A stretch of DNA of 36,937 nt from a virus (Duplodnaviria; Caudoviricetes). Both the position numbers and the translations under genes were made by a program. Shown in pieces: positions 12,060 through 25,615 of the stretch (the first letter of the stretch is position 1; the number at the start of each line of letters is the position of its first letter). The notes under the pieces were generated by a model. It was not told where the DNA came from. It saw only the letters and a program-made list of their open reading frames with translations, and searched no databases. The stretch covers positions 1 through 36,937 of the IMG/VR virus record IMGVR_UViG_3300005326_000738; one strand, 5' to 3'.

Positions 12060-12109
12060 AAAATTCTCCATGTGATAACATGATAAAAATCCATTACATG
12101 GGGGTAAAT

Positions 12110-13120
12110 ATGGCACAAAAACGTGAGATCGAATTTGCAAATTTTACATGTAAATTTGGAGAAAGAAAGGTATTGCTCGACTATGCCACTGAGATAGTTA
12201 TACCGGCATTTCTTGTGGAAGGGCTTGTTCGATCTTATGGTAATACACGGTACTGTTTTCACAAAACAGAATTGATTAAACTTGAAGACGGAGACAACCC
12301 TGTATTTGGCATTACGGGACGATTTATTAAAGACACCAAATTGAAAAGAGAACAGATTTTTGATGGTATAGATATAAAAAAAGATGATATGGAAATACCA
12401 TCCGCACCATCCGCGCTCTTCCTTCTTATATTAAATAATCATAAATTCATATATTTACCTGAAACATCAAATGCCCCTAAAATAGAATCTTTTGAGGCTA
12501 CAATAGATAAGTTTATCAGAATAAAACATAGAGAATATATAGATAAGACCTATGATTTTCATAAAAACAATCCAAAAGGAGATTCTTCCGTAACTAAAAA
12601 AACCTTATTAGAAGAATGCCCATATCCATCGGTCGATATAATTCCTTTGTCCAGCGATGAAAACCTTGAAAGGTTTATTAACCGATATGGTTTGTTGAAA
12701 ACTATAAACGCCAAGTTAGTACAAACAAATAATGAAGCCGATACAGATCCTCTTTTTGAGATGATAAGAAATAAAATGGGTGATATTGGTTCGGATCAAA
12801 CTACCTTGATACATAACAACCGAAAGGGCTTATTGAAAGAAGAAGCTATCAGGCAGTTGAAACCAATTGCGAGAGACGGAAACGCGCGTATAAATCTTGA
12901 AGGAAAAGATGAATATGGAAGTGTTCTGAAAGGGAATAATAACAATTTTAGGCTTCGCATTCCAGTCGAAAACATCCACGATGTTATACGGAAAAACGCA
13001 AATGAAATGTATAATGCTTTTAAAAAACTTCTAAAACAGGGTACGATTGAAATAAATATTGAACTACCCTCCATCAAGAAGATTTTGGAGATATTGGAAT
13101 ATGGCAAAAAAATTGAATAA
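12110..13120 (+). CDS. Soluble protein, DUF4747/RexA-like (putative defence sensor)
   Basis: AT-rich; VDIIPLSSDENLERFI...LKTINAKLVQTN and GNARINLEGKDEYG resemble DUF4747 by eye; overlaps a 4-TM gene. Confidence 0.6.
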   Translation: MAQKREIEFANFTCKFGERKVLLDYATEIVIPAFLVEGLVRSYGNTRYCFHKTELIKLEDGDNPVFGITGRFIKDTKLKREQIFDGIDIKKDDMEIPSAPSALFLLILNNHKFIYLPETSNAPKIESFEATIDKFIRIKHREYIDKTYDFHKNNPKGDSSVTKKTLLEECPYPSVDIIPLSSDENLERFINRYGLLKTINAKLVQTNNEADTDPLFEMIRNKMGDIGSDQTTLIHNNRKGLLKEEAIRQLKPIARDGNARINLEGKDEYGSVLKGNNNNFRLRIPVENIHDVIRKNANEMYNAFKKLLKQGTIEINIELPSIKKILEILEYGKKIE

Positions 13121-13763
13121 TAAAGATTTTATGCAGGAATTAACTGCGGAAAAGAATCTTTTTCAAATATATAAACAAGCAAGAAGATTGCCATCAAAGA
13201 AATTCAATAATATAGCAACCGGTATAACGATCTTACTACTTATGTTATATGTGTTATTAAATACCAAATCAGAATTAGACATTGCTAATGAAGTCAGAAC
13301 ACTATCAAACGCGGGTTTTGTTTTTACGACTCAAATGCTCGCATTTCTGCTTGCAGGCTTTACAGTAGCCGCTACACAGATTAAACCAGAATTACTCAAG
13401 ATAATGGCACAAACAACAGAGGAAGAGAGCCAGCTTAGTTTCTTAAAATATATCTTATTTTCTTTCATGTATGTATTTGCAATTTATATGGCATTTGCTA
13501 TATTTTGTATAAGCATAAAACTGTTTGCTTCAACAGGTGGTTTATGTTCTATTTTGCTATCCTGGATAAATATCGATATTGCCAGAATAGTAAAGAAATG
13601 GTTGGTAAATGTAGGATTTGTTTTAGTTGGTACCTGTTTTGTCAATTCCATACTTCTTCTTAAATCATTTGTGTTTAACGTTTATCATATAATAATGACC
13701 GGGATTAGATGGGAACTTGAAAAGAAGTGTTTGAATAGAATTTCCTCCGATACTGACCAGTAA
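13101..13763 (+). CDS. Four-TM membrane protein (putative defence effector)
   Basis: About four hydrophobic helices; AT-rich; overlaps the upstream gene. Confidence 0.75.
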   Translation: MAKKLNNKDFMQELTAEKNLFQIYKQARRLPSKKFNNIATGITILLLMLYVLLNTKSELDIANEVRTLSNAGFVFTTQMLAFLLAGFTVAATQIKPELLKIMAQTTEEESQLSFLKYILFSFMYVFAIYMAFAIFCISIKLFASTGGLCSILLSWINIDIARIVKKWLVNVGFVLVGTCFVNSILLLKSFVFNVYHIIMTGIRWELEKKCLNRISSDTDQ

Positions 13764-19395: not shown

Positions 19396-20246
19396 CAAAA
19401 GAGATAAAACGGATTCTAAAAGAAAAAGATCGCGGCATCCTGACGGGGACGGAGGCTATGCTGGGCATCATGAAAAATCTACACGGTCAGATTACTGACG
19501 AGATAGGCCGGGCCGCGCTCGGATCATGGGATTCGTATTCTTTAAAAAAGCTCCTTGATAGCCTGGAGATCCGCATAGCAGATTATGAAGGCACAGCTAC
19601 GCGCGAATTGTCGGGCCAGCTTGATAACATGTGGAACAAAGGCAGTGAACTGGTGAGTTCGGCATTGCGCACCGGGGGTTTAGGAATAGGACAGATAGGA
19701 CTTATGGGACATATAAATATTTCTATAAGCTCTCTGGATGCATTGAAAGATTATTCGAATTCATATCTGGAAAAGCTCTTCGGGGATACATGGTTTCAGA
19801 TCAAAGGTGAGATTAATCTGGGGATCCTCGGCGCAAAAACTCCGCAGGAAGTATCAGCTTCAATAGGCACGACAATAGACAAGGGCAAATTCGCAAACAT
19901 CGCGCTGCGAGCTGAGACGATCACGGAGACGGAAATGGGGAGAATATTTTCAGAGGCCACACAGTTCCGGATGAATGAAGCGATGCAACATGTTGAAGGT
20001 TTGGAAAAGCAGTGGATACATGCAGGGCATCCGAGAGCGCCGAGACTATCACACATGGCAGCATCCGGGCAGCATGTGCCGGTGGATCAGCCATTTATGG
20101 TGGACGGGATCCCGATGATGTTCCCGCGGTCTCCGGATGCACCGCTCAGTGAAGTAATCCATTGCGGCTGTGATCATGTACCGTATCACCCGTCCTGGGG
20201 ACCTCCGAGTTCGGGTATCGCGGAATCAATTTTAGGTGCAAGGTGA
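19383..20246 (+). CDS. Minor head protein, Mu gpF / SPP1 gp7 family
   Basis: RAETITETEM...KQWIH...R.SH...GQ...DQPF...MFP..P....EVIHCGC. Confidence 0.88.
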   Translation: MPEVTKEIKRILKEKDRGILTGTEAMLGIMKNLHGQITDEIGRAALGSWDSYSLKKLLDSLEIRIADYEGTATRELSGQLDNMWNKGSELVSSALRTGGLGIGQIGLMGHINISISSLDALKDYSNSYLEKLFGDTWFQIKGEINLGILGAKTPQEVSASIGTTIDKGKFANIALRAETITETEMGRIFSEATQFRMNEAMQHVEGLEKQWIHAGHPRAPRLSHMAASGQHVPVDQPFMVDGIPMMFPRSPDAPLSEVIHCGCDHVPYHPSWGPPSSGIAESILGAR

Positions 20247-20530
20247 AAGATAAAAGAAAAATGATGATCAGGTGCTTCATAGTAATCGCAATACTTTTTA
20301 TCTCAGGTGTTTGCGTCTTTGATAATACGTCATCCGGATCAAATGCGGAGGCTGTGTCTTATAACGTCAACGAACCTTACATATCGTGGAATAGAGTGCA
20401 ATGGATTACCGAGGTGGGCATATTGAAAATCCTGGCGCTGGATGAGACTGCCAAATATATGAGCAGGCTCAGTGATAAGTTCTATGGCTGTGGAATCCTT
20501 ACAGGATGTGACAAATACAGCGAGAAGTAA
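20243..20530 (+). CDS. Small exported or membrane-anchored hypothetical protein
   Basis: Basic N-terminus plus hydrophobic CFIVIAILFISGVCVF; GTGA overlap. Confidence 0.55.
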   Translation: MKDKRKMMIRCFIVIAILFISGVCVFDNTSSGSNAEAVSYNVNEPYISWNRVQWITEVGILKILALDETAKYMSRLSDKFYGCGILTGCDKYSEK

Positions 20531-20842: not shown

Positions 20843-23113
20843 ATGCTGAGTTTCAGCGAAATAAGACGAGCTCTGTGTGATGCGTTTACCGCGGCGTTCC
20901 CGAATTCAAGGGGCGATGTAATCGACGTTTATGCGGATCACTGCATTATCTCTGACGGGTCTGGGGCGCTCTATGAAGTGCCGTACACCCTTGACGAAAC
21001 CGACAAGGTTATAACCGGAGACATGGCAAAGGTACGCAGACAGGTGGATTATGTAAGAGTTGCCGCGGCAGCGAGACTCTTGTCAGCAGTTGATAATGCC
21101 TTAGATGCGGAAAAAGGATATCAATGGCATGTCCAGATCATAGATGCCGGACAGGACAAACAGGGCAATGTGGAATACCCCTATGATGTGCTGAAAGCCG
21201 CTGTCCCGTTGTACGATGGTGCAAGAGTTTTTGCTTTGACTCAGGGGCAACACGCGAATCCGAAAAACCCCTTCGGGAAATCAATACGTGACCTGGTGGG
21301 CTGGATATCGGATGTAAAACCGAATACTACCGGCATTGAGGGCACACTTAATCTGCTCAAATCCGCAGCATGGCTTCGCGATGATCTGATAGATGCGTTC
21401 AGCAAGGGGAAAACCGATCTGATCGGCTTATCACATGATGTTATGGGCAAAGTAGCTAAAGGAAAAAGGATTGTAGAATCCATTGTCAAAGTGGATTCCG
21501 TTGATGTAGTGTATGACCCCATCGGAGGGGGAAAATTTATCAGAATGGCCGCAGCCGGGCAAACCGGGCAGGCCGAAAAGGAGGTAGCAATGTTTGAAAA
21601 ATTGTTAGCAGCATTGGCAACCGCCCGCCCCGGAGAGTTTCAGCAGCTTGTAGCGGCGGGCAAAGTGGCAGATGGTAAGGCTGTGGAGGGTAAAATCACG
21701 GAAGATGAAATTCTCGCAATTCTGGCAGCCGCGCCTGCGGTACCGGCAGCACCGAACAACGACGAAGCGAAGCAGATTCTTGAGCAAACCAGAATTGCAG
21801 CCTGCGGGATTATACTGGTTGGCGATCTGAATGAAAGCGGCCTCCCGCTTCTGGCAATCAACAGAATTAAGAAAACTTTTGAAGGGAAAGTTTTTGAACC
21901 CGTGGCCCTTCAGGCGGCAATCAGAGAGGAAAAGGAATATCTCGACAAGCTGACCGGCAGCGGAATTGTAACCGATTCAGGCCAGACCAGAATTGGCGCT
22001 GAGGAACCTGAGAAGATTCAGGCAGCTTTTGATAAGTTGCTCGGGGTTGTAGTAGACGATAAATTTAAAGATGTCAAATCCATGGAATCATTGCGGGCTG
22101 CATACATACGGATTACCGGAGATCAGGATGTAAGCGGCAGGCCGACAAGAGAAGGTATTAAACTCGGTGAGGCAATAATGGAGATGCTCCGGTTGCCTGC
22201 GGCATACAGCTCATCCTCATTCAGTTTTGTGCTTGGAACATCCATGTACCGGAGGCTTGTCCAGGATTATAAAGGTGTAGATTACGGCGAACAGGTTCTT
22301 GTCAGTTATGCAAGACGCGCCGTAGATTTTAAGACCATGGAATCCATCAGGGTCGGGTATTATGGCGATCTACCGGATGTGGACCCCGAGGCTGCGGACT
22401 ATACGGAACTGACAAATGTTACGGATGAGGAAGTAACCTTTGCCCTGAACCAGAAGGGCGGAATTGTTACAATAAGCCGTAAGACAATTCTGAATGATGA
22501 TCTTCGAGCCCTTCAAAAGATACCTTCCAGGCTGGGCAGAGCTGCAAAAAGGACAAAAGCTCAGCGCATCTGGAATAAGATCATCAACAATTCAACATAC
22601 AAAGGCGACAGCAAGGCGCTATTTCATGCAGATCACGGCAACCTTGGCGCGGTGACTCTCACTAACGACACCACCGGCATTGCGACCCTGACTAATCGTC
22701 TTGTGGCCATGTATAACCAGACCGAACAGGACTCCGGCAAAAAGCTGGCCCTTGAGGCAATGTATGAATGGGTGCCGAGAGAGTTATATGAAGTAGCCTG
22801 CGGGCTCAATTCTCCATGGCCTGGTGTGGCCGGAGGCAATCCTCATGCGGGCAGATTCGGCACAAACCATGAAAGGATTATCAAAAATGCGCTCACTACA
22901 GACACAAATGACTGGGGCCTGATAGCCGACAAAAACGACGTAGAGCTGCTGGAAGTGGCAAGCATGAACGGGCAGGAAGAGCCGGAGTTCTTTGTAGCAG
23001 ACAATCCATTGGTGGGCCAGATGTTCCTTGCTGATGAACTGAAGTATAAAATCCGCCACGAGTATGAAGTAGAAATCGACGACTACAGAGGGTTTGACAA
23101 GAGCGTAATATAG
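20843..23113 (+). CDS. Prohead protease-scaffold-major capsid fusion (Mu gpT-like capsid)
   Basis: Protease (H...SIRDLVG...IGLSH...SVDVVYDP), Ala-rich scaffold, then capsid motifs DFK, ISRKTILNDDL, LGRAA, LFHADHGNL, DYRG. Confidence 0.9.
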   Translation: MLSFSEIRRALCDAFTAAFPNSRGDVIDVYADHCIISDGSGALYEVPYTLDETDKVITGDMAKVRRQVDYVRVAAAARLLSAVDNALDAEKGYQWHVQIIDAGQDKQGNVEYPYDVLKAAVPLYDGARVFALTQGQHANPKNPFGKSIRDLVGWISDVKPNTTGIEGTLNLLKSAAWLRDDLIDAFSKGKTDLIGLSHDVMGKVAKGKRIVESIVKVDSVDVVYDPIGGGKFIRMAAAGQTGQAEKEVAMFEKLLAALATARPGEFQQLVAAGKVADGKAVEGKITEDEILAILAAAPAVPAAPNNDEAKQILEQTRIAACGIILVGDLNESGLPLLAINRIKKTFEGKVFEPVALQAAIREEKEYLDKLTGSGIVTDSGQTRIGAEEPEKIQAAFDKLLGVVVDDKFKDVKSMESLRAAYIRITGDQDVSGRPTREGIKLGEAIMEMLRLPAAYSSSSFSFVLGTSMYRRLVQDYKGVDYGEQVLVSYARRAVDFKTMESIRVGYYGDLPDVDPEAADYTELTNVTDEEVTFALNQKGGIVTISRKTILNDDLRALQKIPSRLGRAAKRTKAQRIWNKIINNSTYKGDSKALFHADHGNLGAVTLTNDTTGIATLTNRLVAMYNQTEQDSGKKLALEAMYEWVPRELYEVACGLNSPWPGVAGGNPHAGRFGTNHERIIKNALTTDTNDWGLIADKNDVELLEVASMNGQEEPEFFVADNPLVGQMFLADELKYKIRHEYEVEIDDYRGFDKSVI

Positions 23114-23130: not shown

Positions 23131-23170
23131 AATAAGTCCTATAAGCCGTACATGGCCTATAGGACTTATT
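23131..23170. other. Strong intergenic hairpin after the capsid gene
   Basis: AATAAGTCCTATA / TATAGGACTTATT perfect 13-bp stem with further GCC/GGC pairing; followed by A-tract on +. Confidence 0.8.
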
Positions 23171-23196
23171 AAAAAAGTAAAACAAGGAGGTTCGAA

Positions 23197-23667
23197 ATGA
23201 ACAAAGTCAAAAGAAGTTTGATAATGATAATGGCGATGACAGCGTTTGTGCTTGTAATGTTTGCTGTACCTTTTCCGGGTATGGCTGCAACGTCTAATCC
23301 GTCATCGGGATCCACCGGATATGAAACGGTTGTCTTGCACATGCCGGGCACATATTCAAGTACTGTGACACCGATCAAATTCAAAGCCCCCTGGCCATAC
23401 AGAGTGATATCTATTTCCGCCTATGCACGAGCTCTCAACACTGTCGGGACAGGAACATATACTGTGGATGTAAAGCAGGGCTCTACGTCGCTGCTCTCGA
23501 CCGCCATACCAATTCCCAGCCTGGAATATGACACGATAATTGACGGCACGCTGGCTACAACCCCTACTATTACAGATGAAGCTACGGTGAGTGTGTTGCT
23601 TACGCTGGGCGGTACATCGCCCGAGATGACGGATGTTACCGTACTGATGGCGGTGAAAAGACAGTGA
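23197..23667 (+). CDS. Signal-peptide-bearing Ser/Thr-rich beta protein in the capsid decoration slot
   Basis: AAGGAGGT RBS; MNKVKR + hydrophobic core + GMA|A cleavage; mature part ATSNPSSGSTG then a beta-rich domain (P.PYRVISISA...TVDVKQGSTSLLST). Confidence 0.75.
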   Translation: MNKVKRSLIMIMAMTAFVLVMFAVPFPGMAATSNPSSGSTGYETVVLHMPGTYSSTVTPIKFKAPWPYRVISISAYARALNTVGTGTYTVDVKQGSTSLLSTAIPIPSLEYDTIIDGTLATTPTITDEATVSVLLTLGGTSPEMTDVTVLMAVKRQ

Positions 23668-24941
23668 GTAATTTATCCAATGTATATAACAAATTTGCAA
23701 AAAAGTGGGGGAGAGACATCTCTCCCACGGTACTGCTCATATTTGTTGTGGCATCGGCGACAACATTATTTGCCCTATGCCCTATACTGAGGCTAAGCCG
23801 GTACATGGTGCTGTGCTATGCACTGATCATTGGGAGCGGATTATTACTATTTAAAACATCGGCGCCTACCGGGGCTCTTTTTATATGGCTGGGGGTAATT
23901 TGTTATATTCACAAAAGCACGCCGATTCTGGCGGCGCTTGCAATCCTGATGTATGCGATCGTTTTGCTCTATATAATCATAAAGGAGATTAAAAGACCGT
24001 GGATATATAATACGGTCTGTGTTCTCGCAATGATTTGCGCATGTTCGCAGTGGCTCCAGTTTTGGGATATAGCTATAATTTTTAAACCTGTTATGCCGGG
24101 GCAATATACCGGCATCTTAGGGAACCCTAATGAAACATCAGCGTTTATGGCCGTATGTTTGCCTGGATTTTTCCGCAGGCGCTGGATATGGTTCATATTT
24201 ATTCCAATAACCGGTCTTTTCCTGGCTAAATCATTAATAGGCGTCATGGCCTCTGCTATAATAGGCTGCGCCTGGCTGGTATCACGGAGATCACGCATAT
24301 CGTTGAGAACGGCCTGTCTTGCTGCTGTACTGATATGCGTCGCGGTTACAGGTTATATGGTCCACGTGGACCACTTCAACTGGCAATTGCAAAAAAACTC
24401 CCGTCTTATAGTCTGGCAGGAAAGCATAACCGCGTCGCTTTATAAATCAAAATCTCTCACTGGCTGGGGGTTCGGCCAGTATAGCGTGGTAATCCCGATG
24501 CTGACAGCGCCGCTGAGCATACGCGATGTCAGGATTAAATTGGCAATGTATGCAGAGATTGAAGACAAAAAAGCATTTATAGACCTGATTAATGCCTTGT
24601 CAAAAAGTGATGTGGCAGGATATTACAAAACCAAAATATATCCTAATGAAGCTTATTTTGAAGCTCATAACGATTATGTGGAAATCCTTTTTGCCGCAGG
24701 CATGATGGCGCTTGTGCTGCTCATTACTGCTATAGCTCATTCACTCTGGAGCGGGTGGAGAAATCCCGACCGAATACCGTTTTACGGGCTGCTCGCTTCA
24801 TGTGCAGCAGCCGGGGTGTTTTTTGTGTGGCAAATTGTGCCCATTGCGATTGTATCGATCGTCTGGGCCGGATTGTGCCTGTCTGCTCGAAACCAGATAG
24901 TGGCCGGCTTAAAATCGAATAGCACGCAGGGGGTTGCATGA
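23664..24941 (+). CDS. O-antigen ligase / O-oligosaccharyltransferase family (WaaL/PglL, Wzy_C) membrane protein
   Basis: About 10-12 TM segments with GILGNPN, RLIVW, GWGFGQY and AHNDYVEILFAAG motifs; GTGA and ATGA overlaps with both neighbours. Confidence 0.9.
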   Translation: MSNLSNVYNKFAKKWGRDISPTVLLIFVVASATTLFALCPILRLSRYMVLCYALIIGSGLLLFKTSAPTGALFIWLGVICYIHKSTPILAALAILMYAIVLLYIIIKEIKRPWIYNTVCVLAMICACSQWLQFWDIAIIFKPVMPGQYTGILGNPNETSAFMAVCLPGFFRRRWIWFIFIPITGLFLAKSLIGVMASAIIGCAWLVSRRSRISLRTACLAAVLICVAVTGYMVHVDHFNWQLQKNSRLIVWQESITASLYKSKSLTGWGFGQYSVVIPMLTAPLSIRDVRIKLAMYAEIEDKKAFIDLINALSKSDVAGYYKTKIYPNEAYFEAHNDYVEILFAAGMMALVLLITAIAHSLWSGWRNPDRIPFYGLLASCAAAGVFFVWQIVPIAIVSIVWAGLCLSARNQIVAGLKSNSTQGVA

Positions 24942-25615
24942 GCACGCTGGTAGATATTGAAACAGAAGTAATCGGGATAGTGAAGGATGATTCCGGTAAG
25001 CTTGTGAATCCTGCCGATTACGATCAGGCTGTCAATACGGCGCTGATGCGTTATTCACGCCATAAACCCCTTAAGGTTACTGACGATATATCCGGGGACG
25101 GAACAAATCAAATATTGCTGCCCGTAGGATGGAGCCCGGAGTTTTCTTCTGTATTATCAATAGAATATCCGATAGGGGATTTCCCTCCGACTCTGCTCGA
25201 TGAGGAAGATTATTATGTCATAGACAGGGCCGGAACCGCGACACTCGATTTTGAACTGGCAGCAACGGACAGCGTCCGCGTTACTTATACGATGCTCCGT
25301 ACGGCTGATGATATACCGGATATTGATCTGCACGCCTTCTGTTTTCTTGCGGCATCGATATGCCTGGAACTGCTTGCAAACTCGTTTACACAGGACGGAG
25401 ATTCCACAATAAACGCTGACGTAGTGGATCACAAGTCAAAAGGGGCTGATTTTGCATCCCGTTCGAAGAAGCTTATGGCTCTCTATAAAGATCATATGGG
25501 AATTAAAGATAACGACACATCGCCTGCGGCATCGGCTGTGGCCGACCTTGACATAAAATACCCCGGAGGATCGGAGAGGCTGACACACCCGAGATGGGCG
25601 AGGAAAAGACGCTGA
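24938..25615 (+). CDS. Putative head-tail adaptor/neck protein
   Basis: Position after the head genes; ALMRYS...SIEYP pattern. Confidence 0.65.
   Translation: MSTLVDIETEVIGIVKDDSGKLVNPADYDQAVNTALMRYSRHKPLKVTDDISGDGTNQILLPVGWSPEFSSVLSIEYPIGDFPPTLLDEEDYYVIDRAGTATLDFELAATDSVRVTYTMLRTADDIPDIDLHAFCFLAASICLELLANSFTQDGDSTINADVVDHKSKGADFASRSKKLMALYKDHMGIKDNDTSPAASAVADLDIKYPGGSERLTHPRWARKRR

Follow-up and report, generated by a model that had tools for sequence, protein, structure and literature searches.

The closest described counterparts of the genes considered here are pairs in which an O-oligosaccharyltransferase (O-OTase) is encoded directly behind its substrate gene, namely pilA-tfpO, pilin-tfpM and comP-pglS (PMC9829042, PMC12800693). 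TfpM is a Wzy_C protein of about 425 amino acids (aa) with an essential histidine, its H286A mutant being inactive (PMC9829042), and H324 has been proposed as the base in PglS (PMC12800693). Membrane Wzy_C proteins are also borne by phages, as in D3 Wzy-beta and VarioGold p25, the latter likewise following a gene for a signal-peptide protein (PMC9658991). The present analysis concerns two overlapping genes at 23197-24941 (+) of IMGVR_UViG_3300005326_000738, a tailed-phage record of 36,937 bases that was analysed in its entirety and is called the window below: a small protein of 156 aa with a predicted signal peptide, and a membrane enzyme of 425 aa, both in the head operon behind the capsid gene.

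Tailed-phage particles are regarded as being assembled entirely in the cytoplasm. In actinobacteriophages, as Freeman et al. are said to have described in 2023, soluble phage-encoded glycosyltransferases reportedly act on capsid and tail-tube proteins in the cytoplasm, and to our knowledge all virion glycosylation so far is the work of cytoplasmic enzymes. The window enzyme is likewise phage-encoded, but it is membrane-borne, with its active side predicted to be the periplasmic one, and its putative acceptor is an exported accessory protein; no soluble glycosyltransferase gene was found by Pfam among 33 window open reading frames (ORFs).

A preliminary description of this stretch had proposed that the pair coats the virion with host glycan. 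The arrangement is real, conserved and unusual. The reading we prefer, at a probability of about 0.5, is that the small protein is a capsid cement which passes into the periplasm, receives there an O-linked glycan from a lipid-linked donor of the host, and is joined to the heads at lysis. Gene layout and fold apart, each step of this, from export through glycosylation to the binding of capsids, is what we infer. A literature search in full text, mostly at the level of titles and abstracts and covering few subscription papers, found no exported tailed-phage capsid protein and no phage OTase in a head operon. The nearest published arrangement is VarioGold p25-p26, where p25, unlike the window enzyme, is described as running against the direction of the late genes and standing away from the head module (PMC9658991). 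HFTV1 was dropped as a precedent for an exported, glycosylated cement, since what is described there are turrets that bind glycans, rather than exported or glycosylated ones (PMC12494034). The features of the pair are as follows.

23197-23667 (+): small protein gene, 156 aa (ORF call)
23197-23286 (+): predicted Sec/signal peptidase I signal peptide, residues 1-30 (hydrophobic leader, conserved Ala at -1)
23287-23667 (+): mature jelly-roll protein, 126 aa, predicted capsid cement or decoration protein (model with predicted local distance difference test, pLDDT, of 92)
23287-23319 (+): low-confidence N-terminal arm, residues 31-41 (pLDDT about 60), candidate O-glycan acceptor (T32, S36, S37, S39, T40)
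23664-24941 (+): enzyme gene, 425 aa, Wzy_C/WaaL-fold membrane glycosyltransferase with about 12 predicted membrane helices (PF04932, fold)
24402-24404 (+): R247, equivalent of Cupriavidus WaaL R265 (alignment; invariant in 62/62)
24666-24668 (+): H335, equivalent of Cupriavidus WaaL H313, the conserved Wzy_C histidine (alignment; invariant in 62/62)

Conservation of the gene pair

The order capsid gene, signal-peptide protein and Wzy_C enzyme, which had been put forward as a synteny to look for, extends far beyond the window. A tree was built from 41 enzyme sequences, with the window represented by the identical L077 and two of the four host enzymes omitted (no score). In this tree 33 rows form one branch (98/96) apart from the two host enzymes, and 11 Mu-like rows form a sub-branch (100/100). 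The mapped loci of the 33-row branch are phage head modules of differing plans, and the capsid proteins neighbouring the clade fall into 7 different best-hit families. More distant relatives are similarly placed, the exceptions being L117, which is not in a head module, and L071 and L072, which look chromosomal. Among 401 genomes of the host phylum the enzyme family was found in one, within a known prophage, and tblastn against 50,697 phage records, a set in which the presence of D3 and VarioGold is unverified, gave no match for the mature small protein, its distant relative P0070 or the enzyme.

For the neighbourhood count, one locus was kept per distinct enzyme with upstream DNA, near-copies, cut loci and the two chromosomal-looking cases being dropped; signal peptides were called by eye and with a home-made rule rather than by a trained predictor. 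An ORF satisfying the rule lies directly upstream of the enzyme in 28 of these 33 loci, against 18 of the 303 other ORFs of the same loci. Among the five misses, L061 and L068 bear a signal by eye, L059 has a signal ORF directly downstream, L086 has an ORF inserted between partner and enzyme, and L117 is the locus outside a head module. The 23 partners make up 12 BLAST groups, two pairs of which are alike by eye, giving 10-12 kinds, and the idea of an enzyme dedicated to this one substrate had to be given up for the clade. Of 18 partners compared with PHROGs, five hit tail-fibre or virion families and the other 13 have no hit; among the signal-bearing upstream neighbours listed, only L054 ends in Ser/Thr.

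Several local peculiarities were seen in these loci. The ORF inserted in L086 (393-866) resembles, by eye, an HNH endonuclease; the enzyme genes at L059 5851-6807 and L064 5384-6642 are shortened or split and possibly decaying; and a small beta-rich ORF stands directly after the enzyme in L001 (10077-10340, no leader) and L006 (8014-8418, with a leader). L136 6353-8731, in the G001 prophage, holds tandem related tail-fibre-like ORFs, of which only the first has a signal peptide by eye. Apparent fusions of the small gene with the enzyme in L078, L085 and L070 were rejected, the long ORFs being run-on frames over a separate small gene.

Within the Mu-like group it is the small gene that is fixed, and the enzyme is optional: of 28 distinct small proteins, the enzyme follows 8, another 18 carry only a leader, and 2 lack both. 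The enzyme is lacking even in L003, whose capsid protein is 87% identical and, after that of L001, the nearest. The enzyme-bearing phages are not one group in the capsid tree (approximately unbiased, AU, test p 1e-37); in the small-protein tree a modestly supported branch (80/84) sets the enzyme-linked proteins apart from the rest. Between the small and neck genes of L006, L015, L030, L033, L034 and L035 there are clusters of ORFs resembling signal-peptide proteins or lipoproteins, with a collagen-repeat protein in L015 and a small TPR protein in L034; a TMTC-like transferase considered for L034 was ruled out, just a 137-aa TPR protein being present there.

The small protein

The leader of the small protein has a basic N-region, a hydrophobic core and a cut site between GMA and A. 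Ala stands at -1 in 23 of 26 aligned small proteins, and the other three rows comprise one mis-registered by the pattern, one with a 2-residue insertion and one signal-less protein. The leader sequence varies while its basic-hydrophobic-Ala plan is kept, the conserved part begins directly after the predicted cut, and the predicted cleavage after Ala30 coincides with Met1 of two signal-less orthologues, L021 and L128. The Sec signal peptide noticed earlier on the 156-aa protein is therefore borne out as a conserved leader of the cleavable type, and real export of the protein is very likely. Leaderless synthesis in the cytoplasm, the norm for cements, is found in L021 and L128 and not in the window protein; the BPP-1 cement is described as uncleaved and leaderless (PMC3863775), in contrast to the predicted signal peptide of the window. 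Relatives of the small protein number 29 close ones and, in a wide search, 1,033 clusters at E <= 0.001. Among the best 150 wide-search matches the crude rule marks 90 as signal-bearing, with errors in both directions seen by eye, and many of the others are proteins of 120-135 aa that start where the mature form starts.

When the mature model was compared with 48,161 solved chains, the best match was a tail-fibre tip (9rkv, Z 9.4), followed by Pam1 7eel_H (Z 9.1, with 121 of 140 residues aligned), a peptidase domain (Z 8.8), BPP-1 3j4u_H (Z 8.7) and GP4 8h89_J (Z 8.4), three of these top five being phage head chains of 140-155 aa. Chain H of 7EEL and chain J of 8H89 are cements, their structure titles saying just "capsid". 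The cements BPP-1 Bbp16 (3J4U), Pam1, GP4 and KHP40 (7DOU), matched at Z 7.0-9.1, are single jelly rolls of comparable size encoded, like the window protein, beside the capsid gene, at identities of 8-18%; 3j4u_H corresponds to the 140-aa BPP-1 jelly-roll cement (PMC3863775). Foldseek placed the model on 7eel_H with E 9.7e-4 and TM-score 0.61 and on 199 viral models at E <= 0.001, among which collagen or fibre proteins are frequent, and the Atlas clusters nearest to it are 91-100% viral. In P0203 the small-protein domain is fused to Phage_cement_2 (above cut-off). A sequence search of solved structures gave nothing significant, WaaL appearing at E 1.2 only. The decoration-like character first suggested for the protein is accordingly supported by fold (Z 8.4-9.1 to head chains), by the capsid-adjacent slot and by this fusion.

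The capsid gene is immediately upstream of the small gene in 23 of 23 mapped loci, and also in L001, L004 and L128; the 23 were mapped from 32, most of the other nine being copies of mapped ones, with L004 and L005 viewed separately. In L003 one gene separates the two. It lies at L003 1029-2414 and encodes a protein of 461 aa that has a signal peptide, fibre repeats (phrog_38058), an N-terminus that by eye looks like a cement, and a tip related to the enzyme partners of other phage types; L003 itself has no enzyme. The signal-less orthologues of L021, where a clear ribosome-binding site precedes the Met, and of L128 occupy the same slot between capsid and neck genes, neither with an enzyme; these cases come from L021 and a genome search (2 of 401 genomes), and a locus search for P0119, a signal-less relative in the library, gave no match. 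Because a form confined to the cytoplasm has no access to the cell surface, the shared slot argues for a virion role, and these orthologues are the strongest argument for a part in the particle. That the small protein is a virion component is, on this comparison, quite likely, and the reading as an exported cement is well supported by it.

The mature part was described as Ser/Thr-rich and contains 29% Ser+Thr, against 8-19% in 14 other late proteins; it has no N-X-S/T sequon, and N-linked glycosylation is not indicated. The Ser+Thr content is 0.20 in 30 signal-less library proteins and 0.24 in 44 with a signal, and 0.25 in the 18 proteins without the enzyme and 0.28 in the 8 with it. At arm position 37, Ser/Thr is found in 7 of 8 enzyme-linked proteins versus 2 of 18 without the enzyme, and at position 40 in 8 of 8 versus 5 of 18; since these related rows share ancestry, the pattern hints at where a glycan might sit but does not show that there is one.

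The membrane enzyme

The enzyme matches PF04932 with E 3.4e-5 and 24.1 bits, under the curated cut-off of 31.7; 26 of 27 aligned relatives match Wzy_C, L061 and L103 exceed the cut-off, and the Atlas agrees. The PglL-type domain was absent by Pfam in 27 of 27 relatives. In the model (pLDDT 86) the best fold match is WaaL (7tpj, Z 20.0, root-mean-square deviation 4.5, 303 residues aligned), followed by SEDS proteins at Z 10-13 (best 12.9), and Foldseek also ranks WaaL first (E 3e-3). Compared with the WaaL O-antigen ligase of Cupriavidus metallidurans (PDB 7TPG/7TPJ), the window enzyme has the same fold and size and the equivalents of R265 and H313, but it shares only about 15% identity, lacks an equivalent of R191, and is encoded among phage head genes, following an exported protein, rather than in a lipopolysaccharide (LPS) locus. 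The active site is predicted to be periplasmic.

All four motifs picked out at first sight were located (GNPN at 153, RLIVW at 247, GWGFG at 267, AHNDY at 334), and GNPN proved unconserved, with G153 in 24 of 62 relatives. R247, G267, G269, H335 and N336 are invariant in 62 of 62, and E340 and the GxG motif are strictly kept. An insertion of 60 residues lies between the GxG and HN motifs. WaaL R191, the Arg of the S/T-R-G motif after a short helix, is retained (T-R-G) in 4 of 4 chromosomal enzymes. R43 (conserved in 51 of 62 rows) and R46 (in 43 of 62), both in the first predicted periplasmic loop of the window enzyme, could, by sequence rather than coordinates, replace the charge lost with R191.

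The assignment to the WaaL/PglL family thus holds for the fold and for the R265 and H313 equivalents; the enzyme lacks R191, and it fits neither PglL/PglS nor TfpO/TfpM. PglL and PglS have 520-600 aa with a Wzy_C_2 or C-terminal periplasmic domain (PMC9829042), whereas the window enzyme ends after its last helix. It shares with TfpO/TfpM a length of about 425 aa and a place directly behind a putative substrate gene, here with a GTGA overlap; the neighbour, however, is a jelly roll with a type I signal and not a pilin, and it ends in KRQ, so that the C-terminal Ser/Thr used by TfpO/TfpM is absent. The pair resembles a dedicated O-OTase with its substrate, yet it belongs with none of PglL/PglS, TfpO/TfpM and WaaL, and it is not moron-like. 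The enzyme is a candidate protein O-OTase.

Operon context, phage and host

The surroundings of the pair are listed here.

20843-23113 (+): prohead protease-major capsid protein fusion, 756 aa, presumed binding partner (PF25209, E 1.4e-31; phrog_4523, phrog_133)
23131-23170 (no strand assigned): 17-pair stem-loop in the gap between capsid and small genes (-22.1 kcal/mol, z -6.0)
23184-23190 (+): ribosome-binding site AAGGAGG of the small gene (sequence)
24938-25615 (+): probable head-tail connector, with an ATGA overlap with the enzyme stop (function by position only)

The fusion scores under the cut-off of NF045541. Both ORFs of the pair are on the late strand between the capsid gene and the next gene, and the GTGA overlap between small gene and enzyme and the ATGA overlap between enzyme and the gene at 24938 are present as reported. 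A neck gene downstream of the enzyme agrees with position, 24938-25615 having no Pfam or PHROG match; its counterpart stands directly behind the small gene in many enzyme-less relatives. The absence of an own promoter was corroborated by 13 promoter-like sites against 12.0 +/- 3.7 expected, none of them in the gap before the small gene. There is likewise no marked AT shift, GC and GC at third codon positions (GC3) being 0.49/0.50 in the small gene and 0.46/0.49 in the enzyme, as in the late genes. Late composition, overlapping junctions and promoter-like sites at chance level place the pair in the morphogenesis operon, as had been argued, and the traits of serotype-conversion morons (own promoter, distinct composition, a place apart from the late genes, partner glycan genes) were not seen.

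The stem-loop at 23131-23170 is followed by no U-tract on the + strand and was listed as terminator-like on the - strand only; it is therefore likely to be an mRNA-stability or attenuation element. Of 28 related gaps, 20 have a hairpin with z <= -2, in unrelated sequence and mostly without a U-tract, and of 28 control stretches 1 has one. The element may determine how much downstream protein is made for a given amount of capsid protein.

On the early side the window encodes (Pfam) an integrase-core transposase, an AAA protein, Gam, GemA and a CI repressor, followed (PHROG) by terminase, portal, head morphogenesis protein and the protease-capsid fusion, which by their sequence make it a Mu-like phage, temperate in view of transposase and CI. 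Close relatives are found in Syntrophobacterales and Deltaproteobacteria UBA6106 genomes, and a diderm host of Thermodesulfobacteriota type is therefore likely; one flank of the Syntrophobacterales copy consists of ORFs resembling, by eye, host metabolic genes. In two groundwater runs contigs match the region, with no differences listed; one contig spans the junction of small gene and enzyme, and run X1 may be the source of this DNA.

Other features of the window and its relatives deserve mention. Two AT-rich ORFs of 346 aa and 234 aa (several membrane helices) lie at 12080-13763 (+), just after a Mor-like gene, with GC 0.32-0.34, GC3 0.29-0.30 and no Pfam or PHROG match; they are the real moron-like insert of the window, possibly a defence or exclusion pair. 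A 95-aa ORF with a hydrophobic N-terminus at 20243-20530 (+), between the head morphogenesis and capsid genes, has a similar ORF in L001 and may be another protein that is exported or resides in the membrane. At L022 9261-10271 and L031 8465-9487, ORFs that by eye resemble reverse transcriptases of diversity-generating retroelements follow shortly after the neck genes.

Proposed mechanism and alternatives

The proposed sequence of events would begin with late transcription of the head operon, from which the small-protein precursor would be made together with the enzyme. By way of Sec and signal peptidase the mature jelly roll would arrive in the periplasm, and there the coupled WaaL-fold enzyme would move a host undecaprenyl-pyrophosphate glycan onto Ser/Thr of the flexible N-terminal arm; lysis would mix the compartments, and the glycosylated protein would reach and bind mature heads. 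Late binding has precedents in Dec and Soc, and many decoration proteins bind mature capsids only and can be added in vitro (PMC7602432). The enzyme would be an optional add-on, most relatives exporting the same protein without it and some making a signal-less form. No glycan-synthesis or flippase gene was found among the 33 window ORFs scanned with Pfam, and the glycan donor would therefore be the host's; initiating phosphoglycosyl transferases (PF02397) are encoded in 4 of 4 host genomes of relatives that were checked, and the profile of host PglL (PF11846) gave 0 in the 4 genomes but 0 in the controls too and is uninformative. The neighbouring small protein is probably the acceptor of the enzyme, and glycosylation by the neighbour, at about even odds, is the most economical reading of the gene coupling.

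A number of observations weigh against this reading, and they are given here together with the alternatives. The fold of the enzyme cannot tell ligase, polymerase and protein transferase apart, and 20 of the 28 related small proteins have no enzyme behind them. The upstream signal count comes from 33 loci that are not independent and from a home-made rule, and its P value overstates the case because the loci are related. Joint movement of small gene and enzyme could result from simple linkage, and in the small-protein tree two capsid-defined groupings are rejected and one is not (p 0.12). The Ser/Thr-rich arm, present as first described, is found in signal-less orthologues too, and it is therefore no proof of glycosylation. 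It is conceivable, if unlikely, that the cement is exported while the enzyme, at a late stage of infection, re-ligates, re-polymerises or drains host O-antigen or capsule units, so that the receptor on the dying cell is changed and progeny are not trapped on debris. The nearest solved fold is indeed an LPS ligase, the enzyme is missing in most relatives including L003, and known phage Wzy_C proteins such as D3 Wzy-beta act on O-antigen (PMC4815439, PMC9658991). Such an action, however, leaves unexplained why a signal-peptide ORF of 10-12 kinds stands upstream in 28 of 33 loci; no member was matched in the 50,697 phage records, and the order of substrate and enzyme is that of pilin and TfpM (PMC9829042).

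A second set of points concerns the place of the small protein. Its jelly-roll scores are tied with those of TNF-like, carbohydrate-binding and peptidase domains, and a tail-fibre tip heads the list; fold alone therefore cannot settle function, and the structural comparison with decoration proteins that had been suggested puts cement chains among the top matches without separating them from other jelly rolls. BPP-1 needs its cement in order to produce particles (PMC3863775), a requirement not easily reconciled with a protein that is added only at lysis, and the authors of VarioGold read its signal-peptide and Wzy_C genes as a lysogeny cluster (PMC9658991). That the protein is exported and glycosylated but stays off the virion, as an envelope-bound or released decoy, an exclusion factor or an adhesin, is a somewhat weaker candidate still. 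Export does place the protein across the membrane from the assembling heads, jelly rolls are frequent among lectin-like domains, and the VarioGold pair lies outside the late operon (PMC9658991). Against this stand the signal-less orthologues in the slot, the Phage_cement_2 fusion, the fibre-type partners, the place directly behind the capsid gene and the late-gene composition.

The chemistry of the enzyme raises a third doubt. At the WaaL R191 position the window has Leu191/Ile192, and 59 of 60 phage rows printed lack the Arg; chemistry or donor may therefore differ, and the loss is a real difference that counts against simple identity with WaaL or PglS. This clade-wide loss, the sub-threshold Wzy_C score and the 60-residue insertion would suit an enzyme of changed chemistry that draws on another kind of donor, for instance a sugar linked through a monophosphate, or one that serves as a scaffold in the membrane and retains the exported protein up to lysis. 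Such an enzyme is nonetheless improbable, given that R247, H335, N336, E340 and GxG are strictly kept and that R43/R46 could substitute the charge. Lastly, a lysogenic-conversion moron read from an internal promoter inside the head operon is very improbable. In its favour, the phage is temperate, weak promoter-like sites lie within the small gene and the hairpin could uncouple downstream genes. Against it, promoter-like sites are no more numerous than chance predicts, the two genes have the composition of late genes, there is an overlap at each junction, and enzyme-less relatives have the hairpin as well.

Significance

The preferred reading, an exported cement glycosylated by a periplasmic transferase, would, if true, mean that assembly includes a further step at lysis and that the glycan of the last host shapes the particle surface, so that adsorption, recognition and stability in sediments and groundwater could be affected. 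One gene slot exists in three natural states in related phages (no signal, signal alone, signal with enzyme), and the question is therefore directly testable. Glycoengineering, too, would gain from these enzymes a new supply of compact O-OTases whose acceptor is not a pilin. In a broader form, which we hold at slightly less than an even chance, many uncultured tailed phages may finish their heads outside the cytoplasm: Sec-exported cement and fibre proteins would be loaded with host surface glycan by a phage-only clade of WaaL fold, in a cassette passed between unrelated capsid lineages and placed after any exported virion protein that the recipient happens to have, and the particles would leave carrying O-antigen or capsule units of their host.

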